DNA of 64,000 nt, taken from assembly GCA_963666315.2 (NCBI GenBank), contig CAXXHG010000043.1, positions 544,001 through 608,000 of the forward strand, given 5' to 3'. A program made the translations under genes and the position numbers. The notes under the pieces were generated by a model. The model saw nothing but the letters and a program-made list of their open reading frames with translations. It had not been told where the DNA came from and did no database searches. Source of the stretch: Candidatus Binatia bacterium. GTDB taxonomy: Bacteria > Desulfobacterota > Binatia > Bin18. This document shows, piece after piece, positions 31,307-52,252 of this stretch. Every line of letters begins with the position of its first letter. Position 1 is the stretch's first letter.

Positions 31307-32020
31307 TTAATACCCCTGCGCCTGCCCACCAAACAAGCGCTTCAACCGTTCCACCGGCCAAAAGCGGTTGATCACCACAATAAACACCTTGCGCAGCCGG
31401 TCTTCCGGGCACTGCAGCGGCCGCATGGCGTGCCAGGATTTGTCGCGGCGGGCGAAGAGCAGGCTGCAATTGCCTATGGCTTTTGATTTCGAGACTTTGT
31501 CAAAGTCCTCTAGCCGTGGAGCGGACTTGCGAGGGAAGCGGCCCCCATCGTCGAGTAGCAATGTCTGGCCGCCCCAGGTGGGATCCCAGTCCTGTTCGGT
31601 GTTGAAATAAAAAATATGTGAGCCGAGCTTGTGCTTGGCATCGCAGTGCGGCGAGATAGAACAGCCACGTGGGGTATAGTGCCAGTGAAAGCTGAGTTCA
31701 AATGCTCTCGTCCCGAGCAAACGACTCAGAAAAGTCTGATAGGTCGGGCTACGCAACTCAGCCACAAAGTCTTTCCACTCGTGGACCACCGACAAGTCGT
31801 CGGAGTATCCCAAAATAAACCGGTCATGGCCTTGCTGCCCGTGGGCGCGTTGGTTGTCGAAGCTGGGGGTAAACTGTGTCTGGTCGGGCAGATTGTTTAA
31901 GAGCCGTTGATAGCCCTCCTCAGTCAGCAATCGTTCCGGATTGATCCATGGATACGGCTGCCGAGCCTGAAAAGCCACCGTATCAATCGCACTGAGCTGA
32001 TCCAGATCAAGATATTGCAT
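31307..32020 (-). CDS. 2OG-Fe(II) oxygenase
   Basis: PHCD (HxD), WGGQTL, SWHAM, RKVF; abuts the asnB stop. Confidence 0.85.
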   Translation of the reverse strand: MQYLDLDQLSAIDTVAFQARQPYPWINPERLLTEEGYQRLLNNLPDQTQFTPSFDNQRAHGQQGHDRFILGYSDDLSVVHEWKDFVAELRSPTYQTFLSRLLGTRAFELSFHWHYTPRGCSISPHCDAKHKLGSHIFYFNTEQDWDPTWGGQTLLLDDGGRFPRKSAPRLEDFDKVSKSKAIGNCSLLFARRDKSWHAMRPLQCPEDRLRKVFIVVINRFWPVERLKRLFGGQAQGY

Positions 32021-33979
32021 TTACATCCACTGCTTATGCCAGGCTTGAAACATCAACACGTTCCACAACGGCCGCTTCCAATCCGATGTTCCAGCTATAT
32101 GCTCGGTCCACTTCTGCCGCACCAGGGCTGAGTTGAATATGCCGGTTTGACACAATGCCTGTTCCGACAGCAGCTCCTCTGCCCATTCACGCAACGGTCC
32201 GCGCAACCAGCCACTCAGCGGAACCCCAAAACCCTGCTTGGGACGTTCAACAAGCTCACGCGGCACATATTTATACAGTAACTGCCGCAGCAGCCATTTG
32301 CCCTGTCCGTTACGGATCTTCATGTGAGCGGGTAGCGTCCAGGTGAACTCGACAATTCGATGATCCAGCAGTGGCACCCGCACTTCAAGACTGACCCCCA
32401 TGCTGGCCCGATCGACCTTGGTCAGATTATTATCCGGCAGATAGGAAAGGGTGTCCAAAAACTGCATCTGAGAGACAATGTCCACCGCTGGAGTTGTGTG
32501 GTGTGTGAGATACGATTTCTGCGCCCCGTCAGCGTCCGCATTGATAACGAGTCTGGCCGGGTCCTCCCAGCGCCGCCACAGTTGGCGATCGTGTAAGTCG
32601 GCTGTATCGAGCGATAATGCACGGGAGAGTTGGTGAGTGTGTTTGACCAAACGAGAGAGTGGTTTAGGTGCAAGTGACTGTACATTTTCTAAGAACGGAG
32701 GAAGCAAGCCTGTGGCCTGCGCCAACACAGCACGGACAGGACGTGGCAACCGTGAGAATCGGCCCCATAGCTGGGCGGCTTTGATATAGCGTTTATACCC
32801 AGCGAATAGTTCATCGCCGCCGTCTCCGGAGAGCGAAACAGTGACCTCCTGCCGGGCCAAATGCGAGACAAAACAAGTCGGAATCTGCGAGGTGTCAGCA
32901 AAGGGCTCATCATACCAGTCAGGCAAGCGTGGCAGGAGGTCTGAGGCGTGACTTGGCTCGACAACAAGTGTCTGATGGTCAGTGCCTAGGTGTCGCCCAA
33001 TGCGCTGCGCATACTGGGATTCATCCCGGCCTGCTTCCTGAAAGCCAATAGTAAACGTCTTGATAGGACGCGGGCTGTGCTGCTGCATGAGCGCGACAAT
33101 GGTTGAAGAATCAATCCCACCCGACAGAAACGCGCCCAGAGGAACATCGGCAACCATACGCCGTTGGACTGCGTCACTCAGTAGGGTTTCGAGTTGGTCC
33201 AGTGCAAGTTGGTCCAATGTTTGTTGATCTCGTGTTTGTCCGTCATCCGCCTGGAGAGGAGCCTCAGTCCCTTGCTGGATAACATGGTTGAGATCCCAAT
33301 AGCGCGTGATGTGTGGCTCGTGCGACGTACGCAGCTGTAACATGCAGCCGGGTTCAAGTTTATACACGTCACGATAAATGCTGTGCGGAGCAGGAATATA
33401 ATTATAGCGCAGAAACGGAATAACCATGTCTCGGTCAAGCCGTGCGTCAAAGCACGGATGCGCTCGTAGCGCTTTCAGCTCAGAACCAAAGAGAAAGACC
33501 TGTCCGAAACGAGCCCAGTAGAGTGGCTTAATGCCGATGCGGTCGCGTACCAGGGTGAGACAGTGTTCTTGGCGATCCCATAGACCAAAGGCAAACATGC
33601 CGAGACAGCGCCTCACCGTCTGTTCGATCCCCCAGGCGGCACACGCTTCAAGCAATACTTCGGAGTCACTGTTCCCGCGGAAGATGTGGCCGTGCGCTTC
33701 GAGGTCTGCGCGGAGTTCCTGAAAGTTATACAGCTCGCCATTATATACCAGCACGAAACGCTCATCCGCAGACAGCATGGGTTGGCGGCCGCTTGGTGAC
33801 AGATCGATGACGGATAAGCGTCGATGTGCAAGACCGATTCCATGTGTCTGATCAACCCAGACCCCATTGTCATCCGGTCCGCGGGATACGAGGGTATCTG
33901 CCATGCGCGTGGCCAGCATTGAGAATTCAGACAGTCGAGGATTTGGAGCAGGGTCCAAAAATCCGCTTATCCCGCACAT
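32021..33979 (-). CDS. asnB: Asparagine synthase (glutamine-hydrolysing) family amidotransferase
   Basis: MCGISG Ntn start, HRRLSVID, YNGELYN, RDRIGIKPL, FLSGGIDSS, SGDGGDELFAGY, KVDRASM, RPKQGF. Confidence 0.93.
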   Translation of the reverse strand: MCGISGFLDPAPNPRLSEFSMLATRMADTLVSRGPDDNGVWVDQTHGIGLAHRRLSVIDLSPSGRQPMLSADERFVLVYNGELYNFQELRADLEAHGHIFRGNSDSEVLLEACAAWGIEQTVRRCLGMFAFGLWDRQEHCLTLVRDRIGIKPLYWARFGQVFLFGSELKALRAHPCFDARLDRDMVIPFLRYNYIPAPHSIYRDVYKLEPGCMLQLRTSHEPHITRYWDLNHVIQQGTEAPLQADDGQTRDQQTLDQLALDQLETLLSDAVQRRMVADVPLGAFLSGGIDSSTIVALMQQHSPRPIKTFTIGFQEAGRDESQYAQRIGRHLGTDHQTLVVEPSHASDLLPRLPDWYDEPFADTSQIPTCFVSHLARQEVTVSLSGDGGDELFAGYKRYIKAAQLWGRFSRLPRPVRAVLAQATGLLPPFLENVQSLAPKPLSRLVKHTHQLSRALSLDTADLHDRQLWRRWEDPARLVINADADGAQKSYLTHHTTPAVDIVSQMQFLDTLSYLPDNNLTKVDRASMGVSLEVRVPLLDHRIVEFTWTLPAHMKIRNGQGKWLLRQLLYKYVPRELVERPKQGFGVPLSGWLRGPLREWAEELLSEQALCQTGIFNSALVRQKWTEHIAGTSDWKRPLWNVLMFQAWHKQWM

Positions 33980-34764
33980 GAGCGGTCCTTTGTCGCTGGA
34001 GGCAACTGTTCCGACCTGCCCGACTGTCCCAGATTTCCCAATTTGGTTTTGACCCAACGCTGGAGTTTTGGGGCTCGGCGCACGTAGTAATGCCGCAGCG
34101 GATTTGCTTGCTCGTCAAATTCGTACACAAACGGCTCGCCTGTAAGCGAACGTTTCACACCTGGGATGTCGTTTTCCGCAATGCCATCAAGATAGGTGGT
34201 CAGTGCACGCAGGCTATTGCCGTGCGCGACTATCAAAATCTGTTTGCCTGCTTTGATCTGGGGAATTATCGTTTCGTGCCAGTAGGGGAGCACGCGCGCG
34301 CGGACGGCTTTGAGGGTTTCTGTGCGTGGCAGTTCTGCGTGTGTAAGCTCGGCATAGCGGGGATCATGGCCGGGAAAGCGCTCGTCTGTTGGGTCGAGGG
34401 CCGGGGGTGCGATATCGAAGTGCTGCTGCCAGATCACGACTTGTTCCCGGCCATAACGCTGGGCGATTTCTTGCCGGCTGAGTCCTTGCAGTGCACCACA
34501 ATGGCGCTCATTCAGCCGCCAGCTTGTATGGATCGGAACCTGGAGCTGCATGCCTTCCAGAACGATCTCAAGTGTATGCAGCGAACGCTGCAGATAGGAG
34601 GTAAAGCCCACGTCAAACGAAAAACCAGCCGCTTGCAGGAGCTGGGCGGCTCGTCTGACTTGCTCTTGGCCGTGTGGACTGAGATCGACATCGGCCCAGC
34701 CGGTAAAGCGACGGGCTTGGTTCCACATACTCTGGCCGTGACGAAGAAGAACAAGTTTGATCAT
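33967..34764 (-). CDS. gpmA: 2,3-bisphosphoglycerate-dependent phosphoglycerate mutase
   Basis: LVLLRHGQS, FTGWADVDL, WRLNERH, AHGNSLRAL. Confidence 0.9.
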   Translation of the reverse strand: MIKLVLLRHGQSMWNQARRFTGWADVDLSPHGQEQVRRAAQLLQAAGFSFDVGFTSYLQRSLHTLEIVLEGMQLQVPIHTSWRLNERHCGALQGLSRQEIAQRYGREQVVIWQQHFDIAPPALDPTDERFPGHDPRYAELTHAELPRTETLKAVRARVLPYWHETIIPQIKAGKQILIVAHGNSLRALTTYLDGIAENDIPGVKRSLTGEPFVYEFDEQANPLRHYYVRRAPKLQRWVKTKLGNLGQSGRSEQLPPATKDRSCAG

Positions 34765-37286
34765 ACGACGGTGTGAAAGCCGAGCAGGCGGCGAACCTTT
34801 TGGGCAACCTGGTCAAACTCCTGCAGAGCTGGACGTATCTTAAAATCCAAGGGTGCACCGAAAAAGCGCGCAATCTTGCGCTGGACTAGGGTGTCGTGCA
34901 ACGCGCTCAAATCCCGTCGGGGCTGGACAATGCCGCGTTCAATCAATCGAGCGCACACGTACGACAACCCACTTTGGGGTTGTATGCTGCCGCGCTTTTT
35001 GCGCTGCGTGATTTGGGCATGAGTGACTATCCACTCCTTGCAACTCCCGATCAGGTCCGCCGCTCGCTTTGGCAAGGGATAGATGGAGAGCGGTGTAGCG
35101 GTGGTTGCGGCTTCAGCCAACATGGACTCGCTCTCTCCGCTCACAATCAAAACGTCCGCTAGTGCCAGATAACCCAAATACGGATTGTCTTGCTGCCCCG
35201 CTTCCCAGGTATGCACGTAGTGGGCTGGACCCAGCCCGGCTATCAAGGCGGCTGTTTCCGCCTCGCCCGTTCGTCGGCTGGTCGTGGCAAAAACTTTTCC
35301 ACCCACACGTTCGGCAAACGTGCGGACATCTTCTCCCATTTTCCGGGCAATGCTGGGATCAAGCTGATAGCGGGCGGTCGCCCCTCCGACCAGCAGCATA
35401 ATCCATGGATGCGGAGCGTCCTGAACCAGGTGACACCACTGGTCTGCCCCCTGCTTGAGTCGCTCTGGGGTGATTTGCGTCAAAGGTGCCACAGTTTCGA
35501 TACGCCGAGGATGAGGCGGCAGACGAAAATGACTGCACGCGACCCCGATATCGGTGGTATTGGTGGGCCGGCTGCCTTTACGACCGAGCAGTACCAGCCG
35601 GGTGTGTCCTTTGCTTTGGCGCTGAATCCAGCGCGCAACACGCGCGGGGCGCCAGCCTGCGGTAATAATGAGATCGGGCCAGGGTGGGACAAGTGGGTCG
35701 GAATGGGCGACGTTTAAACCAAATCGCGTTACCCGCTGGGAGCCGAGCAGGCGTTTGTGCACATCAGCCAGCGCAGTAAAGCGTAAGGCCTTAGTTTCAT
35801 ATGGCCAGTCCAGGGCATCGGCGAGACCGAGCGCTTGGGCGGTATGGCCCGGCTTATGTGAGGTCAGGACCCAGACCGTTGGGAGACGGCCGAGGTTGCC
35901 GCCAAAAGAGATCTGGGTGCTGGACTTGGGTGTTGTTGACAACGGTTGGACGGCCAGTTGCCAGCGCACGGAGGGATAACGCGGACTGAGCAGGTCCAAT
36001 TGCGCCTGCCACCAGGTAGAGGGCCGCGGGCGTCCCCGCAACAAGTCGCCATTCGGAAGTTGTTGTTCATACGGAAACGCATGCACGGCGACGGCCACAA
36101 AATGGTGAGCACGGCGAAAGAGCTCTTCCAGCATCCAGGGCACATCTTCGTCTGGCACAAAATCAAGGCTATTCGTACAGACAACGCCGTCCGCGCTTTC
36201 TGCCCGACCGGAGTCGCGGGGGTTGCGGGGGTTGTATGATGCCGACTCGACAAAGACAGGATTATACTGCTGCACGCTGGCCCCGTTGCAACTGATTTGT
36301 CTGCTGCCTAAGCCAAACGAATAGTCCAGGATAGTGTGGCTTCCAGTCTGGGCGATAAGGGTCTCTACACACTTCTGGAGCGGATGGCCGTCACCGTTCC
36401 GGTCTGACACTCTCTGAGGCCGTGATGTCTGCCTGAGACTCGATCCGCTACGGAGGCGAGAGAGCAGCGCGGTGTATTGCGCACTCGGCTGCGCTGCTTG
36501 AAAGACCTGATAGCCGGCCTCATTGGCTGTTTGTTCTAAATGAAACCAAAGCTGGGCGACAGGATTATGCTGATACGCATAACGCTGGGGAAATGGCTGC
36601 CACGGCTGGGTCTGGATGGTGGTGTAGTGCAGCAGCTTCGATCGCTCAGCCTCGTATTCTCCGTCGCGTGCATTCCAGTGTTGATCAAGCGCACCCCATA
36701 GATCAGGGACTTCCCGGGCGGCGGCTTCTAACGCTTTACGGCGTTCGTGCTGCGCCGCTTCGAGTGTCCAGACCGTTTTCATCCGCTCGCAGTCGATCAG
36801 CATGACTGACGTGTCGCGGTCGTTTATAGACAGAAAGCCATGGCTGCCCAGAGCTGTGTCAAAAAGTTCGCCGGGATCGGCCAGATAGATTTGGTCCATG
36901 TCATTATAGATGGCAGTGCCGTGCCCGTCAGCAAAATGGGGAATAGCAAATCGATAGTTCGTAAATCCGGTCAGCCAACCGTGCTGATCAAAACCGGCCA
37001 GGTCTTTCATGAGATATAATTCGTACACCCGAGCGGGATCCCGGACCTGCTCAATGGACCAGATAAAGACGCGCTCGGCTCGGTATTGGGCCGGCTCGGT
37101 GCCAACAAAGATGCGGACCGCTGGCTTTTCGCTGGGAGCAACACCAGTGCGCACACCAAGGACGACACGCTCAAGCTGGGTCCGGGTGCCTGGTGTGTGA
37201 TACGGGTCTGTCCGCAGCAGCGAATCAAGTAATCTGCTCACTCTGCGTGCTGTTGTTGAAAAAGCCATAGGTCTACGACTAGGCAA
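34761..37286 (-). CDS. Fusion: GT-A glycosyltransferase + degenerate SAM-methyltransferase + ELM1/GtrOC1 domain
   Basis: VRIFVG...TGFTNYRFAIP...AIYNDMD (DxD); ILDYSFGLG...DGVVCTNSLDFVP; VWVLTSHKPGHTAQALGLA...WPDLII...TTSRRT...NPYLGYL...SESMLAEA. Confidence 0.75.
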   Translation of the reverse strand: MPSRRPMAFSTTARRVSRLLDSLLRTDPYHTPGTRTQLERVVLGVRTGVAPSEKPAVRIFVGTEPAQYRAERVFIWSIEQVRDPARVYELYLMKDLAGFDQHGWLTGFTNYRFAIPHFADGHGTAIYNDMDQIYLADPGELFDTALGSHGFLSINDRDTSVMLIDCERMKTVWTLEAAQHERRKALEAAAREVPDLWGALDQHWNARDGEYEAERSKLLHYTTIQTQPWQPFPQRYAYQHNPVAQLWFHLEQTANEAGYQVFQAAQPSAQYTALLSRLRSGSSLRQTSRPQRVSDRNGDGHPLQKCVETLIAQTGSHTILDYSFGLGSRQISCNGASVQQYNPVFVESASYNPRNPRDSGRAESADGVVCTNSLDFVPDEDVPWMLEELFRRAHHFVAVAVHAFPYEQQLPNGDLLRGRPRPSTWWQAQLDLLSPRYPSVRWQLAVQPLSTTPKSSTQISFGGNLGRLPTVWVLTSHKPGHTAQALGLADALDWPYETKALRFTALADVHKRLLGSQRVTRFGLNVAHSDPLVPPWPDLIITAGWRPARVARWIQRQSKGHTRLVLLGRKGSRPTNTTDIGVACSHFRLPPHPRRIETVAPLTQITPERLKQGADQWCHLVQDAPHPWIMLLVGGATARYQLDPSIARKMGEDVRTFAERVGGKVFATTSRRTGEAETAALIAGLGPAHYVHTWEAGQQDNPYLGYLALADVLIVSGESESMLAEAATTATPLSIYPLPKRAADLIGSCKEWIVTHAQITQRKKRGSIQPQSGLSYVCARLIERGIVQPRRDLSALHDTLVQRKIARFFGAPLDFKIRPALQEFDQVAQKVRRLLGFHTVV

Positions 37287-37409
37287 TTTTTTGTACGTAA
37301 GGGCGAGAAACGGCTGTGGCTATCGGTCTGATGCGGCCCGGGTAGGCACGGGCAAAGACAAGCAGCAGATGCATGACTAGAGGAACTCCCTAGTGGAGCA
37401 TGTGGAGCA

Positions 37410-38657
37410 TCATGATGCCTGCGTTCCAAGCAGATGTTTGCGGTTCCAGAACTGGACTAAACGCAGGGTGTGGAAGCCGAGTGAGGCCACCTGCCAGACA
37501 ACAATGGCAACAAAGACGGGAATCGGAATGTCAAGAAGTAATCCCAGCATAAACAGCGGCACATTGATATTCCGGCGCGAAATAAAGGTCCGCATGCGTT
37601 CATCTAGGGAGGTGTAACCGTGAATCGACTGGCCCATCCGGGCGCTAAACAGCCCGGCCACAATACGATCCAGAACATAAAAGACAGCCATCCACACCGC
37701 CAGTTGGAAGACGGGTGCGCCCGGTATCCCGCCACTTAATGCCCAAGCCCAGGCGAAATACCACACTGGAGGATGAACGATATCCAGCCCATGATCCAAG
37801 ATATCGCCGAGCTTGGACGCCGTGAATGTGAGCCGGGCCAACTTGCCGTCCACCGAGTCGAGTACGCTCATGGTGTAGGCGAGCGTAAAGGCCGAGATCC
37901 AGTATCCGTACGCGAAGAGCGGCACAGCGAGAAAGGTGATGAAGACATTAAATACCGAGATGACGTTAGGATGTACGCGCCAGCGGGCGAACGGACGTAC
38001 GGCACGCCATACCAGTGGCGGGTAGACATATTTGGTAAAAAAGTCGGTCGAGCCTTTATAGTTGGACCAAAACAGAAAGCGTTCGGCCCGGTCTCGGCTG
38101 GCTGTGTCCAGAATGCGAAAAAGATATACGGGCAGATCACGCCGGAGCTTGCGAATATACGACGGCACTTCGGCCAGTACGACTTCCTGGAGGCGGCCTG
38201 CCTGAAGACTGCGTTCCGCAAGCTTCGGCAGCCGGATTCCGGTTGAAGGGGGCAGGGGGTCCTGTCCTTCGAAACGAAGTGCAGCAGTCTGTGCTTCTCC
38301 GGCTTTTCCCCGAGCGGCCCAAGAACCCGAGCACTCGCCAAGATGGCGCAACAGGCGGCTATCCACAACAGCGTCCGCCTCTAGTGCGAGCAGCGGTTCG
38401 TTTTGGACCGTTTGAGACAGCGTCGTCCGATATTCCGACACTGTGCGACGTTCATGCCCCCAGCGTATCGAAAGCCGGCGCAGGAGATCCGGTGGCAGGA
38501 GCGAAGGAAGATCTACCGTCTCAGCAGAGAGCTGGACATAGACTTCGTTCGGGTCTAGCCCAGCTTCGATAATGGTATGTAGCTGGCGTTCGAGCAGCGT
38601 CATGCCGAAAATCCGCAGTCTGCTGCTCGGATTGGTCGCGTCTATCCAGATAAACAA
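37410..38657 (-). CDS. CDP-alcohol phosphatidyltransferase with N-terminal NTP-transferase-like domain (CpgC-like, copy 2)
   Basis: LDSVDGKLAR...SKLGDILDHGLD signature; N-terminal IFGMTLLERQL. Confidence 0.85.
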   Translation of the reverse strand: MFIWIDATNPSSRLRIFGMTLLERQLHTIIEAGLDPNEVYVQLSAETVDLPSLLPPDLLRRLSIRWGHERRTVSEYRTTLSQTVQNEPLLALEADAVVDSRLLRHLGECSGSWAARGKAGEAQTAALRFEGQDPLPPSTGIRLPKLAERSLQAGRLQEVVLAEVPSYIRKLRRDLPVYLFRILDTASRDRAERFLFWSNYKGSTDFFTKYVYPPLVWRAVRPFARWRVHPNVISVFNVFITFLAVPLFAYGYWISAFTLAYTMSVLDSVDGKLARLTFTASKLGDILDHGLDIVHPPVWYFAWAWALSGGIPGAPVFQLAVWMAVFYVLDRIVAGLFSARMGQSIHGYTSLDERMRTFISRRNINVPLFMLGLLLDIPIPVFVAIVVWQVASLGFHTLRLVQFWNRKHLLGTQAS

Positions 38658-39859: not shown

Positions 39860-40585
39860 ATGTCGGAGAGCAAAGACCCCAAAGAAATCCTGGAACAGAC
39901 ACAGCAGCCGTTCAGCTCACCTGGATTTGATACATGGACGGCTGCCTGGGCCGTCTCGAAACGAAGAAAGAAACAGGCGTCACCGCCCGCGCCAGATACC
40001 ACGTCGGACACGCTGCGAGCCGTGGAAAATGATCCGGAAACACTACGCAGGAGAACCGAGAATCTGTTTCAGGGCCCAGTGTTGGATACGTGGACGGCTG
40101 CCTGGGCGGCTTCAAAAGGAAAAATAAAGGCGCGGCCACAACGCAAAAAAGACAATGCCACGGTCGTGCGACAGATCTATACGGATATCTATACAGGTAT
40201 CTCGACAGATATCTCGCAAAACGAGCTGGCTGCAGTTCTGCAAGCGCTTGCTGAGAATCAGACGCTTGCTGAGAATATTGAGTGGCAGTCGCCCGGACCA
40301 AAGGAAATTCCTTGGGCTGGAACTATCCGGGGTCGAGAGCAGGTGGCGCAGTGGTTTGCCATACTCGACGAAACGAGAGAGCTTGAACAATTTGTACCGC
40401 GAGAATTTATCGCCCAAGGAAATCAGGTTGTTGTGATGTGCGACGAACGCAGCCGGGTGAAAGCGACCGGCAAAGTGTATGAGGTGGCCTTGGTTGCCGT
40501 ATGGACGCTTCTCAATGGGACGGTCACTCACTACCGCGAGTCCTATGACACAGCGACGGTGTTGGCTGCATTATGGGCAGAGTAG
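39860..40585 (+). CDS. SnoaL/NTF2-like protein with duplicated N-terminal motif
   Basis: C-terminal IEWQSPGP..IPWAG..RGREQV..WF...EFIAQGNQVVV...YDTA; AAGGA RBS. Confidence 0.78.
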   Translation: MSESKDPKEILEQTQQPFSSPGFDTWTAAWAVSKRRKKQASPPAPDTTSDTLRAVENDPETLRRRTENLFQGPVLDTWTAAWAASKGKIKARPQRKKDNATVVRQIYTDIYTGISTDISQNELAAVLQALAENQTLAENIEWQSPGPKEIPWAGTIRGREQVAQWFAILDETRELEQFVPREFIAQGNQVVVMCDERSRVKATGKVYEVALVAVWTLLNGTVTHYRESYDTATVLAALWAE

Positions 40586-42933: not shown

Positions 42934-43005
42934 AATCCCTAAGTTATTCAGCCTATACCACTTCCCTAGGGTATGATAAGACCGCTCTTCCGCAGGAGCA
43001 CAGGC

Positions 43006-44223: not shown

Positions 44224-45452
44224 GTCGCATGAGTAGACGGACGTGTTCGTCTCCCGTTTCTCAACTCAGACGCGTCTTTTGGACCGTGCCGGTTGGATTT
44301 CCCTATATCTTCAGAATTTTCGGAATTGTCGGAATCCTCGGAGTTCTCGCAATTTTGGGAGGAGTTCCCACATTTGGCTTATGGACGGGCTGGAGTGGCG
44401 ATCTCTTTGCCGCAGCTGAGCGCGGAAATCCGGCCGCCCGCCTACTGCCGGGAGAGCTTGCCCACGAGCGGTGGGATCTGACTGCCCGGTTCGATTCCGG
44501 CCATTTTCTGTTCGCTGAATTTTTGATCACCAACTTTGGGCTTGGTGATCGGAACGCTGCAGTGATTGGTCATGTCGTTCGACCCAACGGTCAGAGCCGG
44601 CGATTTCGGAACGGTCGGCGTGAAAGTCGATGGCAGCTCTCGTCAGATCGGCTCCGGATGGAAGTCGGGTCGAGTCTGCTCGACCAACGCAGCCCAAAAC
44701 ATCAGCTGCGGGTCAGGAAGAAGAGTACGCAGATTGAGCTGGATTTTTATCCGCGCGGGCCGGCTGTCTGGGCAGCTGATTTTCCGCCATCCGGTTACGC
44801 GCTGGATCTGCTTGATCCTGCTGCACGGGCTGAGGGGTCTGTCTGGGTCAAAGGCATGGACACGCCGGTGACGGTACACGGGACTGTCGCCGTCACCCAT
44901 AGCTGGGCGAATGAGGCGGAATCTGATCTGGTGCTGCGTCGGCTGGAATTCTTTTTGTTTCCGGATAAGCAAAGTGAGATGTCGCTCTACTTAGCGGATC
45001 TCACGACACCCCACGGAGCCCACAGCCGTTGGCTTGTTGTCAAAAACGGACAACAGGTGGTCCACGAGGCGCAAAATTTTCAGCTTACGTTTGACGGGAA
45101 TGTGAAAAATATCGGGTCCTACCATGTCCCCCAACAGTTCTCTTTTGAGAGTACAGCTGCCCATCCACACATAAAAGGCCGGGTTCAGCTCGACCGGGTG
45201 CTCCTGCTGTATAATCCTCTGGATGATATCCCGCAGCCCTTTCGCTTTCTGATCTCTCTCAAGCTGAAACCGCGTCGGGTGTGGCTCCTGTCGCCTTTCG
45301 AAATAATCTTCCAGCCGGACCAGGCGCGTGCATCAATTACGCTGACAGGCACTGGCATCACAAAAGTCTCGTTTCTCAACCCCTTAGCCCCCACCGCGAC
45401 CGGATGTAACGGTCTCGGTTTTTCAGGGATTTCGTGCGACTGGGCCTTTTAA
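44220..45452 (+). CDS. Membrane-anchored beta-rich hypothetical protein (AttH/CrtC/Svf1 lipocalin-like)
   Basis: ATGA-coupled to upstream gene; N-terminal TM; ERWDLTARFDSGHFLFAEFLITNFG and GTVAVTHSW motifs resemble AttH-like double barrels. Confidence 0.55.
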   Translation: MSRMSRRTCSSPVSQLRRVFWTVPVGFPYIFRIFGIVGILGVLAILGGVPTFGLWTGWSGDLFAAAERGNPAARLLPGELAHERWDLTARFDSGHFLFAEFLITNFGLGDRNAAVIGHVVRPNGQSRRFRNGRRESRWQLSSDRLRMEVGSSLLDQRSPKHQLRVRKKSTQIELDFYPRGPAVWAADFPPSGYALDLLDPAARAEGSVWVKGMDTPVTVHGTVAVTHSWANEAESDLVLRRLEFFLFPDKQSEMSLYLADLTTPHGAHSRWLVVKNGQQVVHEAQNFQLTFDGNVKNIGSYHVPQQFSFESTAAHPHIKGRVQLDRVLLLYNPLDDIPQPFRFLISLKLKPRRVWLLSPFEIIFQPDQARASITLTGTGITKVSFLNPLAPTATGCNGLGFSGISCDWAF

Positions 45453-46432
45453 GCAATTGCCGGGCTGGTCTTAAGAAAGGCCACCTTGGCGCGCTTGGGC
45501 GCGTCCTTAAGGCTGCTCCAGATGTGGTGCATATCGAGACCGCTGGCAGCGAGGAGGTGCCCGAGGCGTTAGCCCGCTTAGCGCGTCAGGAAGTTACAGT
45601 GCTGGCTGTGAATGGCGGGGACGGGACGCTGCAGCATGTACTGACCGAAGTTTTAAGCAGCAATATCTTCGAGACGCTGCCCTGTATTGCCCCTCTGTGC
45701 GGTGGACGAACAAACATGAGCGCGCATGATATCGGCAGTCGTGGCAAGCCGGCTGCTGGCCTTGCTACGCTCATGAGTAGCGTGCAAGCGAATACGCTTG
45801 GACAACGGATTGTCGAACGGCCTGTGTTGCGCATTGACTGCGGGCCACACCAGCGTCCTCAATATGGGATGTTCTTCGGCGCAGGCGTCATCCAACGGGC
45901 GCTGGCTTTTAAGCATCAGCTGTATCCCCAGCAGCGCTTGCAAGGACTGTTTGGGGCGGGGCTCTTCTTGGGTGGGACGTTGCTGCGGATCGCGTGTGGT
46001 GCGCAAACCGGACTCCTGACACCGGACGAAATTGGGATAGGTCTGCACGCTGAGCATGGTGAGCAGTATGTGAATGATGAGTGTGTTCCGCTGGCACACC
46101 TGGAACGGGAACGGTTCCAACTGCTGATGGCTACAACGCTTGCGCGTCTTTTTCTCCGCATTCGCCCGTTTTGGGGACGAGAAGATGCTGCAGTCCGATT
46201 TACCTCTATCGCGGCAAGAGCGAAGCGGAGTCTTCCTGCTGTGCTAAAAATCTTGCGGGGGCTGCCACCTGCGCCGTCCATTAGCGCGAGCGGCTATTGC
46301 AGCCGAAATGTTGAGAGTGTGACCTTACACATGGACTGTGGTTTCACGATTGATGGCGAACTGTTCGACCCGGAGCCAGGACGAACAGTCCGTCTTGAGG
46401 CCGACCATAGACTCCGTTTTGTGCGAGCATGA
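45434..46432 (+). CDS. Diacylglycerol/sphingosine kinase family protein (ceramide kinase CpgB-like)
   Basis: VLAVNGGDGT, GGRTNMSAHDIG, GMFFGAG, FTIDGELF. Confidence 0.85.
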   Translation: MRLGLLSNCRAGLKKGHLGALGRVLKAAPDVVHIETAGSEEVPEALARLARQEVTVLAVNGGDGTLQHVLTEVLSSNIFETLPCIAPLCGGRTNMSAHDIGSRGKPAAGLATLMSSVQANTLGQRIVERPVLRIDCGPHQRPQYGMFFGAGVIQRALAFKHQLYPQQRLQGLFGAGLFLGGTLLRIACGAQTGLLTPDEIGIGLHAEHGEQYVNDECVPLAHLERERFQLLMATTLARLFLRIRPFWGREDAAVRFTSIAARAKRSLPAVLKILRGLPPAPSISASGYCSRNVESVTLHMDCGFTIDGELFDPEPGRTVRLEADHRLRFVRA

Positions 46433-47433
46433 GTGATATGGACGGACCTGCAACATCCCTCGGTGCAGCACCTGACATGCTCCTGACCGAGCTCTTTTTG
46501 AAAGAGTTGACCCAGCCTGTTCCACAAGAAGCTGACATTATCGCTGCTGAAATTCAGCGCCGTCACGGTCAGGCCGTGGATGCCGTGCTTTTTTACGGCT
46601 CCTGCCTGCGTACTCAGCAGATGACCGACGCTGTGCTAGATTTTTATGTTCTGGTCCGCTCATATCCGGCGGCGTATGAAAAGCCCATACTGAGATGGCT
46701 GAATGCACTCCTGCCACCAAACGTGTTCTATCTTGAGATAGGACATGCGCCGCAGACGCTGCGAGCAAAGTATGCCGTTATCTCGACTGTGGATTTTGAG
46801 CAGGCGACTACTCCACGCAGCATTCCTGCCATTATATGGGCGCGGTTTTGCCAGCCCGCACGGCTTGTGTATGCACGCGATAGTGTCGTGCAAGAAAGAG
46901 TGGCGCAGGCAACAGCGCAAGCCGCGCTGACGTTCATAAGACGGGCGGTCCTCTTTTTCGCTTCTCCGGAGGGTGATCTGCCTATTCCCTGTGCCGACCT
47001 GTGGCACACCGGATTCCAAGAAACTTACCGTACAGAGTTTCGTACCGAACGACCAGAAACCATTCGTGCCTTATACAAAGCAAGCCCTGAGCGATACGAC
47101 CGGATAGCGCGGTGCGGACTCCAACGACTTCAACAGCAACGCGTGTTTGACCTCCAAGAGCAAGGCGGGCAGTGGACGCTGTCTATGCCGCTGCTTCAAC
47201 GGTGGACGAGACGCTGCGGCTGGACCCTGCGCCGTTCCTTGGCAAAAATGCTGTATGCTTTGCGGCTCTTCAAGACGGCGCTGACCTTTGGAGATTGGCT
47301 GCCCTATGTCCTGTGGAAGCTGGGGCGGCATACTGGGGTGTGGGTTGAGCTGTCTGAGCGGCAGCGCCGCTACCCATTGATCTGGGGCTGGCCGGTGCTG
47401 TTTAAGCTTCTTCGGCAACGTGTTCTTCGATAA
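46429..47433 (+). CDS. Pol-beta-type nucleotidyltransferase, Tam41/CpgA-like lipid cytidylyltransferase
   Basis: AVLFYGSCLR...DAVLDFYVLV, LLPPNVFY, LRAKYAV, WARFCQP, TYRTEFR; ATGA-coupled to the kinase. Confidence 0.7.
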   Translation: MSDMDGPATSLGAAPDMLLTELFLKELTQPVPQEADIIAAEIQRRHGQAVDAVLFYGSCLRTQQMTDAVLDFYVLVRSYPAAYEKPILRWLNALLPPNVFYLEIGHAPQTLRAKYAVISTVDFEQATTPRSIPAIIWARFCQPARLVYARDSVVQERVAQATAQAALTFIRRAVLFFASPEGDLPIPCADLWHTGFQETYRTEFRTERPETIRALYKASPERYDRIARCGLQRLQQQRVFDLQEQGGQWTLSMPLLQRWTRRCGWTLRRSLAKMLYALRLFKTALTFGDWLPYVLWKLGRHTGVWVELSERQRRYPLIWGWPVLFKLLRQRVLR

Positions 47434-48518
47434 CTGATGCAGATGTCCGGTGTAGGCGTATCCGTCGTATCAAGTGTCGGATCGCCGAAAGAATGCCGCG
47501 CTCGCTGGTTTGATTATAGGAAGAGTCCAAGGGCAAAGCGTCCTGCAGCTGGCGATGCAGCCCCCCCAGACTATGATAGGGGACATTCGGCAAGAGGTGA
47601 TGAAGCGCGTGATAGCGTAAGCCCACCGGCGCAGCCAGAACGGTCAGGACCGGCCATCCGCTCAAATTGATGGAGTCAAGCAGCTGTTCTGTCAGGCTCA
47701 GTTGCCGCCCGCTATTTTCATAGCGATGAGCGGCCAGGGTGCGGACTTGATTCAGCACCAATATACCGGCTGTCACCAGGTACCACTGCAAGATCCAAGT
47801 GGTGGGCAGGAGGCCCATCATCCAGCTTACGCAGGCGAACCAAACAACCAGGGCTGCGGCCGCTTCTTGAACGCGCCAGCGGGAGATCTGATGTTTGCGT
47901 GGCAGCGGACGACAATAGGCTGGGTTAATGACCAGGGTCGAGGCGCGCTGAACAAGCAGCTTGCGCAATGGAGGAATGCTATACGACAGAGGTCCCAGGA
48001 TACCCCAGCGAAGTACTAGTAAGGCTGGAACGATCAACACACCGAGGACAAACCAGCCAAGGCTGAGTATGTTTCCCTGGGCAAGGGGCGCGTACTCGGG
48101 GTCGTTTGCTGTACCGAAAACATTGGGCCGATGGTGATCCCCGTGGGATCCAACATACATCAGGCTGGGTAAGAGGAAAGGCAAGCCGACAAGGAGATGC
48201 CAGGCGATTTCGAAACCTGGCAGACTGCCTCGCTTACAAATGTGCAATTTCATGGATAAATAAGGTCGCACGGAGCAGTGCGACCAGAGCGATGACGGTT
48301 GCTGCGAAGTAGGCCAAGGAGCTGAATGGCGAGTGAAGACTCAGATAAAAAGCCGTCCAACCCACTACAGATGACAGCAAGAGATCAAGCCAGTAGATGC
48401 CAGGATGTGGCTGAAACGTCTTGAGAAACTGTTTGCGCAGCCGTTGTGCCAGCCGCTCGTCCGGTGTTGCTACGAGCAGGTCCTCAAGGGATGGGAGGGT
48501 TGACTCTCTTGGCTGCAC
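47402..48518 (-). pseudogene. Membrane fatty acid/sphingolipid desaturase, single +1 frameshift
   Basis: His boxes HEIAH, HGDHH and HALHH; one extra T near 48236 (cat ttg t aag cga) splits ORFs 48234..48518 and 47402..48271. Confidence 0.85.
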
Positions 48519-48750
48519 TCTTTTTTCCTAATCTTGCCTAGTCCCGCCTAGTCTTGCTTACCCCCGCTCATAACAAAGCCGGCTTCTATAAGAGCGCCCT
48601 AGGCCGCCTTGTCAAGAGAGATCTCTGGGAAGTCGAAGAGGGGGTCAATTGAGTAACATCGTTATTTCTAGTAAAACAACTGTGAAGTGGGTATGCCCTT
48701 GGCTAAATCCGGAAAATCTGTTACCTACCGTGCGATTTCATCGTGATTCA

Positions 48751-49785
48751 ATGGCTTCTGTGAGCATCTTGGTGACAATACCACGTGCGCCGGTGGTGAA
48801 GGCAGATTCTCGCGTCCTTGTGACTGGAGGAACTGGATTCATCGGATCACACTTCATCGACGCGCTTGTTGAACAAGGCGTGCGACCGCGCGTGCTCGTG
48901 CGTCGCACGAGTAATGTCTCTCAGCTCTCGGCACATGATCTCGAACTTATGACAGGCTCATTAGAAGATTCCGACAGTCTGGCCCGTGCGGTATCTGGGG
49001 TTGAGGTTGTCATCCATATCGCGGCCATAACAAAGGCGCCCACAGAGAAAAAATATTTGCGCGCTAACGCGGCCGGTACCCAAGCGCTTGTTGATGCAAT
49101 GCGCTCTGCTGAGCCACGTCCTCGACGGCTCGTCTATCTCAGTTCGCTTGCGGCAGCTGGGCCAGTGTTGGATGGACAACCCTTCGGACCAGACGACGCG
49201 CCACGACCTATTACTGCGTATGGACGAAGCAAGCTCATTGGTGAGCAAGCCTGTCTTGCTGCGTCTGACGCATTCGACGTTGTTGTCTTGCGTGCACCAG
49301 TGGTGTACGGACCACGAGAACGTGATTTTTTCTTGCTCTTTCGTTTGGCGACTCGGGGCATTTTGCCTACGCCAACGGGACCGGACCGCGTTGTCCAGCT
49401 CATCCATGTTGCGGATTTAGTTGAGGCGCTGATCCGTGGAGCAACAATGCCCGACGCACGTGGCATCTATCACGTAGCCGAATCACAATCCTATGCCTGG
49501 AGCGAGATTGCCGCGTGTATGGGGCGAGCAGTTGGGCGCTCAGTCCACCTGGTGCGTATCCCACAGCTCTTGATGCAAATTGCCGCAGCAGGCAGTGAAG
49601 TCGGGGCGGCAATAATAGGACGGGCGACCATATTTAATCGGGAAAAAGTCAAGGAGTTACTCGCTCCCGGCTGGTTGTGCGAAACGGCACTGGCCAGGCA
49701 AGAGCTAGGATTTGAGGCCAAGATTTCGCTTTCGACAGGATTTGCTGAAACAGCAGCATGGTATAAACGCAAGGCATGGTTGTAG
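48751..49785 (+). CDS. NAD-dependent epimerase/dehydratase family, probable ceramide reductase (CerR-like)
   Basis: VTGGTGFIG, YLSSLAA, YGRSK, VYGPRE; directly upstream of spt. Confidence 0.8.
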   Translation: MASVSILVTIPRAPVVKADSRVLVTGGTGFIGSHFIDALVEQGVRPRVLVRRTSNVSQLSAHDLELMTGSLEDSDSLARAVSGVEVVIHIAAITKAPTEKKYLRANAAGTQALVDAMRSAEPRPRRLVYLSSLAAAGPVLDGQPFGPDDAPRPITAYGRSKLIGEQACLAASDAFDVVVLRAPVVYGPRERDFFLLFRLATRGILPTPTGPDRVVQLIHVADLVEALIRGATMPDARGIYHVAESQSYAWSEIAACMGRAVGRSVHLVRIPQLLMQIAAAGSEVGAAIIGRATIFNREKVKELLAPGWLCETALARQELGFEAKISLSTGFAETAAWYKRKAWL

Positions 49786-49884
49786 TGTGGAAGGTCGTGG
49801 AGCCTGGAGGGGTGAGATGAAACCGGGACCACAACATGTCGCTAAAACTGACAATCTGGGATGTCACGGAGAGAGGGGGACGGG

Positions 49885-51087
49885 ATGAACCTTTTCGGGA
49901 AATGTGCTCGTTTTACTCGCGCTCGAGAGGCTCAGGCTACCGGGTATTACCCATTTTTTACGCCGATAGAATCATCGCAAGGGACAGAAGTGATGGTCCA
50001 CGGCGAGCCCAAGGTCATGATGGGCTCAAACAATTACCTTGGTTTAACCCACCATCCAAAAGTGTTGGCTGCTGCAGAGGCTGCACTCAAACGCTACGGC
50101 AGTGGCTGTACCGGTAGCCGTTTCCTGAATGGGACGCTGGATCTTCACGACCAACTCGAAGAGCGTCTGGCCCATTTTCTGAACAAAGAAGCCTCGCTGG
50201 TCTTTAGCACGGGTTATCAGACCAATTTAGGCATCCTGGCGACCCTGATCGGGAAAAGCGATTATCTCTATCTTGATAAGCTTGACCACGCCAGCGCGGT
50301 AGACGGCTCTCAGCTCGCCCATGGGACAGTACTCCGTTATCCGCACAGCGATCTCGTTACACTTGAACAACAGCTTGAGAAAACGCCCCCAAAGGCGGGC
50401 AAGTTGATTGTCACAGATGGCATTTTCTCCATGGAAGGCGACATTGCGGAGCTGCCTGGTTTAGTCGCGCTGGCCGAACAATACGACGCTGAGATTATGG
50501 TCGATGACGCGCACGCCCTGGGCGTCTTAGGAGAAAATGGCGGTGGTACAGCGCAGCATTTTCACCTGGAGGACAAGGTCAGCCTGATTATGTCCTCATT
50601 CTCCAAATCGCTGGCTGCCATCGGTGGGGTTGTGGCGGGGCCGGAGCCGGTTATCCACTATCTGAAACACCATGCTCGTTCCTTGATTTTTAGTGCCAGC
50701 ATGCCGCCTGCGTCTGTGGCCACGGTTTTGACTGCCCTGCAGATTATTGAGGAAGAGCCTGAACGTCGTGCAGCACTATGGCGGAACACCCACCGCATGC
50801 AAGACGGACTCCGGAGCCTGGGCTACGACCTGGGGGGGAGTGATACCCCGGTGATTCCTATTATTGTCGGGGATATGTGGTTGATGGGCATGATCTGGAA
50901 AGAGCTGTTTGACTCAGGCATCTTTACTAATCCAGTCATTCCTCCCGCCGTGCCGGAAAATTCGTGCCGTGTCCGGATCTCGATGATGGCAACGCATACG
51001 GATGAACAGATTGATTTTGTCCTAGACGTCTTTGCCCGTATTCGGCCTCACATTCAGGTGGAACAGGTAGAGAAGGTGGCCGTTTAG
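49885..51087 (+). CDS. spt: Serine palmitoyltransferase (alpha-oxoamine synthase)
   Basis: YYPFFTPI, GSNNYLGL, CTGSRFLNGTLDLH, STGYQTNLG, DHAS, DDAH, SFSKS, FSASMPP; flanked by CerR- and bCerS-like genes. Confidence 0.87.
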   Translation: MNLFGKCARFTRAREAQATGYYPFFTPIESSQGTEVMVHGEPKVMMGSNNYLGLTHHPKVLAAAEAALKRYGSGCTGSRFLNGTLDLHDQLEERLAHFLNKEASLVFSTGYQTNLGILATLIGKSDYLYLDKLDHASAVDGSQLAHGTVLRYPHSDLVTLEQQLEKTPPKAGKLIVTDGIFSMEGDIAELPGLVALAEQYDAEIMVDDAHALGVLGENGGGTAQHFHLEDKVSLIMSSFSKSLAAIGGVVAGPEPVIHYLKHHARSLIFSASMPPASVATVLTALQIIEEEPERRAALWRNTHRMQDGLRSLGYDLGGSDTPVIPIIVGDMWLMGMIWKELFDSGIFTNPVIPPAVPENSCRVRISMMATHTDEQIDFVLDVFARIRPHIQVEQVEKVAV

Positions 51088-51127
51088 TTCTTGGCTGGCC
51101 TGTCTCTGCTAGCGGGCAAGGTCGAGC

Positions 51128-52252
51128 ATGCGGGATGCCGTACGCATAGATCGTGTGGCAGGCCGGCAGGACCTTCAGCGTTTCATTCGACTCCCCTGGC
51201 GCTTATACCGCCAGGATCCGGCCTGGGTCCCTCCGCTCCTCTTTGATCTCAAAAATCTCCTCTCGCCTAAAAAACATCCGTTTCATCAACATGCCGATGT
51301 CCAATACTTCCTGGCCCGCCTGGACGGGGAAGTTGTGGGGCGTATTGCGGCTATTGTCAACCATCAGCACGTGCAATTCCATGCTGAGCCAGTCGGGTTT
51401 TTTGGGTTTTTTGAGAGCATTGACAATCAAGACGTTGCCACTGCGCTGTTGACGGCTGCTGAATGCTGGGTGGCCGAGCGCGGAATGCAACGCATACGCG
51501 GCCCTATGAATTTCTCGACCAACGAGGAATGTGGGCTGCTGGTTGATGGTTTTCACGATGCGCCCAAAATTATGATGCCGCATCATCTGCCGTACTATGG
51601 TGTACAGATAGAAACGGCGGGTTATGGAAAGGCGAAAGATTTGTTCGCATACATACTCGATGTGCGCGGCACCCCCCCCCCGGAACGGCTCGTCCGTGGT
51701 ATTAAGCGGCTGCAGCAGCGCCAGAATATTCGACTTCGACCCATCAGCAAAAAGCGGTTTGATGAAGAGATAAGAATCCTACATGGGATTTATCACCGTA
51801 CGTGGGAGAAAAACTGGGGTTTTGTGCCGATGACCGAAGCTGAGGTGGATCTGTTTGCGAGCCAACTTCGCCTCGTTGTTGATCCGAAACTGTGTCTTAT
51901 TGCGGAACACCAAAACGAGCCAGTAGGCTTTGCGCTCGCGATTCCCGATTATAACCAGGCCTTGCGTCATATCGATGGACGCTTGTTTCCGTTTGGTTTG
52001 CTGAAACTCCTATGGTACCGGCGCACCATCAATATGGCCCGTATTCCGCTGCTTGGCGTCAATCCGGGCTTTCGTCGTCGGGGCATTGAGGCGATGCTTT
52101 ATGTCAAGCTGTGGGAGGTCGTGCCACAAAACGGCTACCCGGTGGTCGAGTGTTCCTGGATTCTGGAAGACAACTGGGACATGCGACGCGGACTCGAACA
52201 GATGGGCGCGCACGTCTATAAGACGTACCGGGTATATGAAAAGGCGGTGTGA
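51128..52252 (+). CDS. bcerS: GNAT N-acyltransferase, bacterial ceramide synthase-like
   Basis: FIRLPWRLY..DPAWVPPL, GRIAA, GFFGFFE, RGPMNFSTNEECGLLV, NWGFVPM, ECSWILEDN, KTYRVY. Confidence 0.83.
   Translation: MRDAVRIDRVAGRQDLQRFIRLPWRLYRQDPAWVPPLLFDLKNLLSPKKHPFHQHADVQYFLARLDGEVVGRIAAIVNHQHVQFHAEPVGFFGFFESIDNQDVATALLTAAECWVAERGMQRIRGPMNFSTNEECGLLVDGFHDAPKIMMPHHLPYYGVQIETAGYGKAKDLFAYILDVRGTPPPERLVRGIKRLQQRQNIRLRPISKKRFDEEIRILHGIYHRTWEKNWGFVPMTEAEVDLFASQLRLVVDPKLCLIAEHQNEPVGFALAIPDYNQALRHIDGRLFPFGLLKLLWYRRTINMARIPLLGVNPGFRRRGIEAMLYVKLWEVVPQNGYPVVECSWILEDNWDMRRGLEQMGAHVYKTYRVYEKAV

Follow-up and report, generated by a model that had tools for sequence, protein, structure and literature searches.

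What would be built by the genes at 31307-52252 of the 64-kb stretch of DNA analysed here (the window, taken at its full length), and how closely do they follow the route to the ceramide phosphoglycerates (CPG and CPG2) known from Caulobacter? The locus holds 17 intact or nearly intact genes and one gene remnant, and from their homologies we consider it probable that together they represent a Binatia-lineage version of the bacterial phosphosphingolipid pathway of Caulobacter. The pathway type is known; the new parts here are a lipocalin gene within the cpg operon, a second CpgA-like transferase (CpgA2), a left arm of further genes and, in relatives, an exporter. A sequence-only reading had already described a sphingolipid locus in this region, and the genes that it listed are all in place according to the open reading frame (ORF) list, Pfam and NCBIfam; its inventory was correct, but a frameshift, a 96-nt exporter remnant and genes for an HtrA-like protease and a SnoaL-like protein had been overlooked.

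Comparisons were made with 80 loci, which an alignment of CpgA-like proteins picked out in a scan of the species genomes of GTDB, each locus being taken with ±10 kb; counts out of 80 refer to presence within ±10 kb of cpgA, a reach that cuts off the far side of the left arm. One of these loci, L034 from a Caulobacter sp., served as the reference for Caulobacter genes (other Caulobacter loci are among the 80) and matches the published CC_1152-CC_1168 layout, with its LptF/G pair, AMP-binding AasR and LptC (PMC11324152).

Ceramide and head-group core

The core genes are the following.

38832..39674, plus strand: MobA/CofC-like nucleotidyltransferase, CC_1153 orthologue (PF12804)
41974..43065, minus strand: metallophosphoesterase, CC_1158 orthologue (PF00149; likely start near 42933)
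42973..44223, plus strand: CpgA orthologue, a CDP-alcohol phosphotransferase (PF01066; likely start near 43006)
45434..46432, plus strand: predicted CpgB-like lipid (ceramide) kinase (PF00781, DAGK_cat)
46429..47433, plus strand: CpgC orthologue of 334 amino acids (aa), with a Pol-beta-type nucleotidyltransferase signature (no Pfam match)
48649..49785, plus strand: CerR-like short-chain dehydrogenase/reductase (SDR) (PF01370, 124.5 bits; likely start ATG 48751)
49861..51087, plus strand: serine palmitoyltransferase (SPT), Spt (NF047600, 530.6 bits)
51128..52252, plus strand: bCerS-like GNAT ceramide synthase of 374 aa (PF00583)

When the L034 proteins were searched against the window by tblastn, the expected gene was the best match in 8/8 cases, and the reverse searches agree. 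The identities to L034 are 48% for CpgA, 40% for Spt and for bCerS, 37% for the metallophosphoesterase, 34-35% for CpgC, 32-35% for the CC_1153-like protein, 32% for CerR and 26-29% for CpgB. The Caulobacter cluster (CC_1152-CC_1168) and the window have in common orthologues of Spt, bCerS, CerR, CpgA, CpgB, CpgC, CC_1158 and CC_1153, as well as the order in which the metallophosphoesterase gene diverges from cpgA-cpgB-cpgC. Here CpgA, the lipocalin protein, the kinase and CpgC are encoded by a four-gene plus-strand operon whose successive genes overlap (ATGA-type or longer), with the desaturase gene (47402-48515) convergent with it and the metallophosphoesterase and HtrA-like protease genes divergent from it. 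The metallophosphoesterase gene is found in 73/80 loci, the CpgC-like gene in 70/80 and the kinase gene in 57/80, and because the core order (metallophosphoesterase / CpgA-kinase-CpgC) recurs in related loci of many lineages, the gene arrangement is not a matter of chance. L001 and L003-L005 show the whole arrangement again, left arm included, and L009 shows part of it, with protein identities of 55-91%. Pfam matches (E ≤0.001) were obtained for 15/17 submitted ORFs, those at 44112-45452 and 46429-47433 having none, and catalytic motifs can be read in the translations of the kinase (GGDG), the mutase (RHG/HGN), AsnB (Cys2 and SGGIDS) and the phosphoesterase (metal motifs).

At the right end of the locus, the SDR, Spt and GNAT genes stand in tandem on the plus strand. 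Spt is 40% identical to Caulobacter Spt (L034), and its best score among 11 families is to the CFB-type SPT model NF047600 (530.6 bits, below the 640 cutoff), with lower scores to the rival families bioF (390.9 bits) and Kbl (377 bits, both NCBIfam); among PDB sequences its top ten matches are all SPTs (432 to 284 bits), KBL and BioF following at 276 bits and below. The aminotransferase is hence closer to SPT than to BioF/Kbl, in keeping with the earlier label spt. The bCerS-like protein is 40-41% identical over its full length to the genes at the bCerS position in Caulobacter loci (E 6e-79 to 3e-89), and the CerR-like SDR is 29-32% identical to the SDR adjoining spt there; both matches are reciprocal, which bears out the proposed orthology of the three genes to those of Caulobacter. 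We infer from these sequence matches a ceramide synthesis module, in which Spt would condense serine with an acyl thioester, bCerS would N-acylate the product and CerR would reduce the 3-keto group to give ceramide. The CFB-type match sets the Spt of the window apart from that of the Caulobacter cluster. When the window was searched by tblastn with L034 AasR, the sole match was partial and fell on an AMP-binding gene far from the locus (4325-4660), and a short L034 ORF used as the presumed AcpR query gave no match in the window, a weak negative because the query itself is without a Pfam match. Given the CFB-type match of Spt and the lack of AcpR and AasR genes, we infer an acyl-CoA substrate rather than one carried by a dedicated acyl carrier protein. 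As a separate observation, Spt is unusually constrained, with 86-91% identity to its homologues in L002-L005 vs 55-73% for neighbouring genes.

For the head group, the Caulobacter enzymes provide the frame: CpgC is needed for CPG, whereas CpgA, CpgD and CC_1153 are needed for CPG2, to which CC_1158 also contributes (PMC11324152, PMC12275187). CpgA (CC_1159) is the PF01066 enzyme of Caulobacter, and CpgC (CC_1161) has been described as Tam41-like (PMC11324152). An excerpt of PMC10331486 identifies CpgB as a ceramide kinase and describes its conservation as broad across many classes. On this basis, two assignments of the sequence-only reading were wrong: the CDP-alcohol transferase, taken for CpgC, is CpgA, CpgC being the 334-aa protein, and the second nucleotidyltransferase, taken for CpgD, is of the CC_1153 type.

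The CpgA orthologue is 46-48% identical to the genes at the CpgA position in Caulobacter loci (48% for L034), reciprocally, and falls in the tree clade that holds the Caulobacter rows; every residue of its CDP-alcohol motif is invariant in the alignment of CpgA-like proteins. The CpgB-like kinase is the best window match for the Caulobacter genes at the CpgB position (26-29% identity) and had no match in a PDB sequence search. The CpgC orthologue, at the same position as its Caulobacter counterparts, is 33-35% identical to them, reciprocally, and belongs to a family with 3540 homologues at E ≤0.001; it has no Pfam match even at E ≤10, and a profile search of PDB gave a weak nucleotidyltransferase match (9xbd, E 0.15-0.43), to be read as a lead only. 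The metallophosphoesterase shares 35-38% identity with CC_1158, the gene that diverges from cpgA in Caulobacter, and the MobA-like gene is 32-35% identical to the CC_1153-type gene adjoining bCerS in L034, both reciprocally; the MobA-like protein also has weak NCBIfam matches to CofC and KdsB and a PDB match to 2dpw (E 1.5e-14). CpgD stands apart, since tblastn with the L034 protein found no homologue in the whole 64-kb window (best E 2.3), nor was one found within ±10 kb in L001-L008; it is present in 44/80 related loci. Thus, of the claim that the locus carries ceramide phosphoglycerate genes, most stands: the comparisons support the presence of orthologues of CpgA, CpgB, CpgC, CC_1158 and CC_1153, but not of CpgD; its gene may be located outside the window in this genome, or CPG may be the end product.

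In the pathway that we propose, CpgB would convert ceramide to ceramide-1-phosphate, an activity carried over from the Caulobacter enzyme, and CpgC would convert this to ceramide phosphoglycerate, as genetics indicates in Caulobacter, conceivably by way of a CDP-ceramide-type intermediate, which is a guess. CpgA would then add a further phospho-alcohol unit, and CpgA2 another or a different one, while the metallophosphoesterase would trim phosphate. As CpgD is missing from the window, the donor would not come from a cluster-encoded CpgD; the CC_1153-type MobA/CofC-like enzyme may make NDP-glycerate instead, with the mutase of the cluster supplying 2-/3-phosphoglycerate.

Both CDP-alcohol transferases have the catalytic motif of PF01066, and a membrane domain preceded by a cytoplasmic one, in common with bifunctional IPCT/DIPPS and with phosphatidylinositol-phosphate (PIP) and phosphatidylglycerol-phosphate (PGP) synthases, from which they differ in that their family matches fall far below the cutoffs and in that their N-terminal ~200 aa, the cytoplasmic domain, have no Pfam match even at E ≤10, so that a nucleotidyltransferase activity of this domain is unsupported. 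These likenesses bear on whether the head group is phosphoglycerate at all. The two transferases and the phosphoesterase might instead build ceramide phosphoinositol, phosphoglycerol or the like by the transfer-then-dephosphorylate logic of PGP and PIP synthases, as their best named NCBIfam matches (archaetidylinositol-phosphate and PIP synthases, 42-45 bits, far below cutoffs), their PDB matches (PIP synthases and choline phosphotransferases, E 1e-4 to 1e-3), the divergently encoded phosphoesterase and the absence from the window of CpgD, the sole enzyme shown to make CDP-glycerate, would allow. We regard such a head group as very unlikely, given that CpgA matches reciprocally, at 46-48% identity, a Caulobacter gene required for CPG2, that the same phosphoesterase and CC_1153-type genes belong to the Caulobacter CPG2 pathway, that the operon includes a gene for a phosphoglycerate mutase, and that general Pfam scans of the window's larger ORFs turned up no inositol-phosphate synthase or glycerol-phosphate cytidylyltransferase. 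A ceramide phosphoglycerate-type product is the reading that we retain.

Evolutionarily, CpgA and CpgA2 of the window are each nested, in a 109-row tree, in clades where the named members are Binatia (SH-aLRT 98-99). The nearest CpgA, 89% identical, is that of L001 (titled Enterobacteriaceae), the next (51-66%) coming from loci titled Candidatus Binatia or Thermodesulfobacteriota, and for the CpgC-like and ELM1 proteins, too, most homologues that carry a name come from Binatia. From the gene tree and the submitters' titles of the nearest loci we conclude that the lineage is Binatia-related, and, the closest named relatives being Candidatus Binatia metagenome-assembled genomes (MAGs), that the locus lies outside the Alphaproteobacteria. 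An alphaproteobacterial origin by transfer was considered and rejected, as CpgA and CpgA2 sit inside Binatia-labelled clades and not alphaproteobacterial ones. The earlier placement outside Alphaproteobacteria is therefore upheld by the gene trees, but not its novelty, since cpg genes beyond that class were already published: CPG-type clusters have been reported from beta- and gammaproteobacteria (Nitrosomonas eutropha, Azotobacter vinelandii as well as Pseudomonas luteola), with mention of CC_1161 homologues in delta-proteobacteria (PMC11324152). Zik et al., in an excerpt, place CpgC homologues only in Caulobacterales and Sphingomonadales, as against the 3540 family members counted here. No paper on sphingolipids or serine palmitoyltransferase in Binatota or Binatia came up in our searches. 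The gene tree contradicts the titles of some MAGs: L001, titled 'Enterobacteriaceae', falls within a Binatia clade, L050, 'Terriglobia', hardly differs from a Dongiaceae locus, and L031, 'Gammaproteobacteria', pairs with a Myxococcota-type locus. Such cases (L001, L050, L031, L078) are probably binning or labelling errors.

CpgA2 and the left arm

Towards the left of the core, on the opposite strand from the cpg operon, lie the five genes that had been described as a left arm and that are indeed present, the last of them as a weak match.

37410..38657, minus strand: second CDP-alcohol phosphotransferase, 'CpgA2' (PF01066)
34761..37268, minus strand: ELM1/GtrOC1-family three-part protein of 835 aa when started at ATG 37268 (PF06258, 178 bits)
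33967..34764, minus strand: 2,3-bisphosphoglycerate-dependent phosphoglycerate mutase (dPGM) of GpmA type (NF010713, 315.8 bits, cutoff 305; PF00300)
32021..33979, minus strand: AsnB-type glutamine amidotransferase (PF00733, 398 bits, and GATase_6/7)
31307..32020, minus strand: 2-oxoglutarate (2OG)-Fe(II) oxygenase-like protein of 237 aa, the final left-arm gene (PF13640, 24.5 bits, below the 27-bit cutoff)

Over 323 aa, CpgA2 and the CpgA orthologue share 35% identity (E 5e-50), and both have the same N-terminal cytoplasmic domain of ~200 aa. The clade of CpgA2, which takes up 28 rows of the 109-row tree and is separated from the CpgA clade with an SH-aLRT of 100, is made up of loci of Binatia, of Myxococcota type, of Dongiaceae, of betaproteobacteria and of some gammaproteobacteria and does not include the Caulobacter loci; by this tree CpgA2 belongs to an ancient paralogue clade of CpgA, and it is present in 27/80 loci. 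In L005, the exporter and ELM1 genes are kept (4104-5846 to 5855) and CpgA2 is absent.

The ELM1 protein is composed of a GT-A-like N-terminal part, a methyltransferase-like middle and an ELM1 domain (residues 479-741). It has 1483 homologues at E ≤0.001, some of them named 'ELM1/GtrOC1 family putative glycosyltransferase [Ca. Binatia]', and a protein-language search led to methyltransferase/glycosyltransferase clusters. The whole protein has no PDB sequence match and its first 477 aa no Pfam match at E ≤10; a profile search gave a weak match to WbbM (6u4b, E 0.03), again a lead only. The N-terminus holds a DxD/KPW pattern, which we take, in part from that weak WbbM match, to be GT8-like. The start of the GpmA-type mutase gene overlaps the ELM1 gene stop, and the mutase occurs at the same position in L003 and L005 with 60-64% identity (2/80 loci). 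AsnB passes TIGR01536 (478.8, cutoff 267.1); its likely start is at the Met-Cys-Gly codons at 33979, although the ORF extends to 34057, and its translation shows an N-terminal Cys and an SGGIDS loop. It holds its left-arm position only in the window, and in L005 it is absent between the 2OG and GpmA genes. Homologues of the 2OG oxygenase (64-68%) stand at the same position in the Binatia loci L004 and L005 (3/80 loci).

Relative to Caulobacter, the ELM1/GtrOC1 protein, dPGM, AsnB and 2OG oxygenase are all additions, as are the lipocalin gene in the cpg operon, CpgA2, the ABC exporter (deleted here), the HtrA-like protease and the SnoaL-like protein. That extra genes extend beyond the known pathway agrees with the earlier description, for they are kept beside the core in relatives. 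If they serve the same lipid, the ELM1/GtrOC1 protein, AsnB, the 2OG oxygenase and the desaturase/hydroxylase may decorate its head group and chains. It is possible, if somewhat unlikely, that the four genes to the left of CpgA2 are merely adjacent, serving lipopolysaccharide or exopolysaccharide synthesis or central metabolism, and that the sphingolipid system starts at CpgA2 and runs rightwards. The family name of the ELM1/GtrOC1 protein (putative glycosyltransferase), the best sub-family match of AsnB (XrtA/PEP-CTERM exopolysaccharide-associated amidotransferase, TIGR03108, 608.8, with the cutoff of 816.9 not reached), the fact that GpmA passes a housekeeping equivalog cutoff, the absence of all these genes from the Caulobacter cluster and the failure of AsnB to be kept at its position would fit such a division. 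Yet the genes overlap or abut on one strand after CpgA2 and the exporter remnant, ELM1 homologues lie ≤10 kb from cpgA in 10/80 loci, including the beta- and alphaproteobacterial L045, L078 and L051, and GpmA and the 2OG oxygenase hold their positions in L003-L005. We thus continue to treat the left arm as a probable part of the phosphosphingolipid locus.

Lipocalin protein, exporter and lesions

Three further features bear on whether and how the lipid would be completed and exported.

44220..45452, plus strand: predicted membrane-anchored periplasmic tandem-lipocalin protein of 410 aa (no Pfam match; predicted fold)
37279..37374, minus strand: remnant of an MsbA-like ABC exporter gene, 31 codons in 96 nt (by comparison with the L001 exporter)
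47402..48515, minus strand: membrane fatty-acid desaturase/hydroxylase with a +1 frameshift near 48237 (PF00487)

The lipocalin gene sits between cpgA and cpgB, its ATG overlapping the cpgA stop. A single-sequence AlphaFold run of the 410-aa protein (pLDDT 37.7) was discarded, and the run based on a 78-sequence alignment was used instead (pLDDT 86.6), which gives one N-terminal transmembrane helix followed by an all-beta part. Foldseek against PDB matched this model best to 2ich, a putative AttH (E 4.6e-12, TM-score 0.65 on target length), followed by kievitone hydratase, fungal Diels-Alderases and 25-phosphosteroid lyase; there were 32 PDB matches at E ≤0.001 and, among the matches listed, 17/17 at E <1e-7 were AttH, kievitone hydratase, Diels-Alderase or 25-phosphosteroid lyase. 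Sequence identity to these structural matches is ~10%, and the protein has no Pfam match even at E ≤10, hence none to CrtC, Svf1 or DA_N; its neighbours in a protein-language search are clusters of the CrtC/Svf1/DA_N families. From the model, 44220-45452 is predicted to encode a membrane-anchored periplasmic tandem lipocalin with an AttH/CrtC/Svf1-like two-barrel fold; its predicted resemblance to 2ich places it near that superfamily, from which it differs in its N-terminal membrane anchor, its position in a cpg operon and its occasional fusion to CpgA (among the matches listed, 3/150 are fused with a PF01066 protein). The family is small, as 308 representatives out of 1.84 billion pass E ≤0.001. 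An excerpt of PMC10038888 reports that yeast Svf1 binds ceramides.

In relatives, an MsbA-like ABC exporter gene lies between the ELM1 gene and CpgA2 (22/80 loci). The L001 exporter has 580 aa with PF00664 and PF00005, and blastn shows that 1640 bp of L001 (2149-3788) are without counterpart in the window, where the junction falls at 37332-37338 and the remnant is an in-frame fusion of the first 14 codons with the last 17. The only further match that tblastn gave for the exporter in the window is an ABC-F gene, which is unrelated. The Caulobacter cluster has CpgD, AcpR, AasR, LptC2/F2/G2 and a Wzx-like flippase, whereas the window is without CpgD, AasR and LptC2/F2/G2 by tblastn (the AcpR negative being weak). 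Some beta- and gammaproteobacterial loci (L045, L058, L070, L078) share CpgA2, the ABC exporter, the desaturase and ELM1 with the window; unlike it, the proteobacterial loci among those compared keep LptF2/G2 and mostly CpgD and are without the lipocalin gene. The lipocalin gene occurs in 20/80 loci, all of Binatia, Myxococcota or 'delta' type: 2 loci have both it and LptF2/G2, 18 it only, 49 LptF2/G2 only and 11 neither. As the split follows phylogeny, this near-exclusivity is only suggestive and no independent evidence.

We posit that in relatives the MsbA-like exporter may flip the lipid and that the lipocalin protein may receive or modify it in the periplasm, the two taking the place of the LptC2/F2/G2 of proteobacterial clusters. 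Extended to its full form, the proposal would be that Binatia/Myxococcota-type clusters practise Lpt-free surface export through an MsbA-like exporter and an Svf1-like lipocalin carrier, which is coupled and at times fused to CpgA and would take over the lipid at the inner membrane, and that two CpgA paralogues, a CofC-like NDP-glycerate synthase and a dedicated mutase yield a longer or mixed head group of a novel kind that is amidated and glycosylated or methylated; we put this forward tentatively and think it unlikely to hold in full.

The desaturase gene, a family member of which is present in 21/80 loci, is interrupted. Searched by tblastn with the L002, L003 and L009 homologues, residues ~3-94 lie in frame -3 (48515-48240), whereas the remaining residues lie in frame -1 (48235-47405, within the listed ORF 47402-48271); the +1 frameshift near 48237 is explained by a single additional T. 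Elsewhere in the window, four ORFs cover only part of their Pfam models, namely T2SSE 3-160/370 (1475-2656, minus strand), Aldedh 32-260/461 (10273-11397, minus), Abi_alpha 38-89/196 (29959-30438, plus) and DUF3179 76-233/292 (53423-54034, plus); these could be pseudogenes or assembly errors, and they affect the trust to be placed in the lesions of the locus. In the long-read MAG L003, the exporter (3080-4696, 2952-3284) and CpgA2 (4733-5979) are each split into two overlapping ORFs, which reflects either frameshift errors common in such assemblies or repeated gene decay. The lesions of the window may, likewise, be either real decay or assembly error.

With the exporter deleted and the desaturase frameshifted, the pathway in this copy may be impaired or rerouted, and the claim that the organism makes the lipid is weakened to that extent. 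Taken further, the locus could be a decaying relic that delivers no finished surface lipid, its flippase gone and its desaturase broken, as the 1640-bp deletion vs L001 with its 31-codon remnant, the +1 frameshift and the other partial ORFs of the window would suggest. We judge this quite unlikely: against their homologues, the 15 remaining genes are of full length (query coverage 0.88-1.0 in L001-L005), with catalytic motifs retained, a frameshift of one base may stem from an assembly error of the kind that could underlie the splits in L003, and other flippases could substitute. In addition, L005 is without CpgA2 and L002-L005 are without the lipocalin gene, so that accessory content varies naturally between close lineages.

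Several points nevertheless weigh against seeing here a Binatia-lineage version of the Caulobacter pathway. Every activity at the locus is assigned from homology; the identity of CpgB to its Caulobacter counterparts is low (26-29%), CpgC belongs to no Pfam family and has a sole solved-structure hint at E 0.15, and the 64-kb window is without a homologue of CpgD, on which CPG2 depends in Caulobacter. Caulobacter has none of the left-arm genes, of which AsnB is unconserved and GpmA and 2OG are limited to 2/80 and 3/80 loci; L002-L005, the nearest loci with a Binatia name, do not carry the lipocalin gene, which is accordingly dispensable there, and its complementarity with Lpt follows phylogeny. 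Lastly, with an exporter deletion, a desaturase frameshift and partial genes, this copy may be decaying. Set beside the reciprocal matches of the core and its recurring order, these points leave the Caulobacter-like pathway, in our view, the probable one.

Wider meaning and neighbouring genes

If so, Candidatus Binatia would join the lineages predicted to make phosphosphingolipids. The locus also touches on open questions of CPG2 synthesis in Caulobacter, which concern the chemistry of CpgA and CpgC, the source of phosphoglycerate and the route to the outer membrane (PMC12275187, PMC11324152). It offers natural experiments on these: a version without CpgD in the window that brings a phosphoglycerate mutase of its own besides a CC_1153-type enzyme, a second and widely spread CpgA paralogue, and an exporter-plus-lipocalin pair where proteobacteria carry LptC2/F2/G2. 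CpgD makes CDP-glycerate and prefers D-2-phosphoglycerate, and a dedicated phosphoglycerate-producing enzyme has been called for (PMC12275187); an embedded mutase feeding donor synthesis would, if true, answer that call.

Two remaining genes of the locus lie between CpgA2 and the cpg operon.

39860..40585, plus strand: SnoaL-like protein (PF12680, 32 bits)
40759..41841, minus strand: HtrA-like trypsin-PDZ protease, hydrophobic near its N-terminus and encoded downstream of the phosphoesterase (PF13365 and PF13180)

The protease gene is kept in L001-L006 only (6/80 loci), and the SnoaL-like gene holds its cluster position in L001 and L003-L005. A scan of 37200-49000 found 5 promoter-like sites vs a shuffle mean of 5.6, and 20 terminator-like sites vs a shuffle mean of 10.4 (standard deviation 3.2), which were not used in the interpretation. 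The SnoaL-like protein contains a near-repeat of a short Trp/Ala/Lys-rich segment, N-terminal to its SnoaL_2 domain. Outside the locus, CysNC/CysD-like sulfate-activation genes lie at 15905-18961, and a SAM riboswitch (RF00162, 86 bits, 23570-23689, minus strand) stands upstream of ThiF-like and PLP-dependent genes at 20045-23479.

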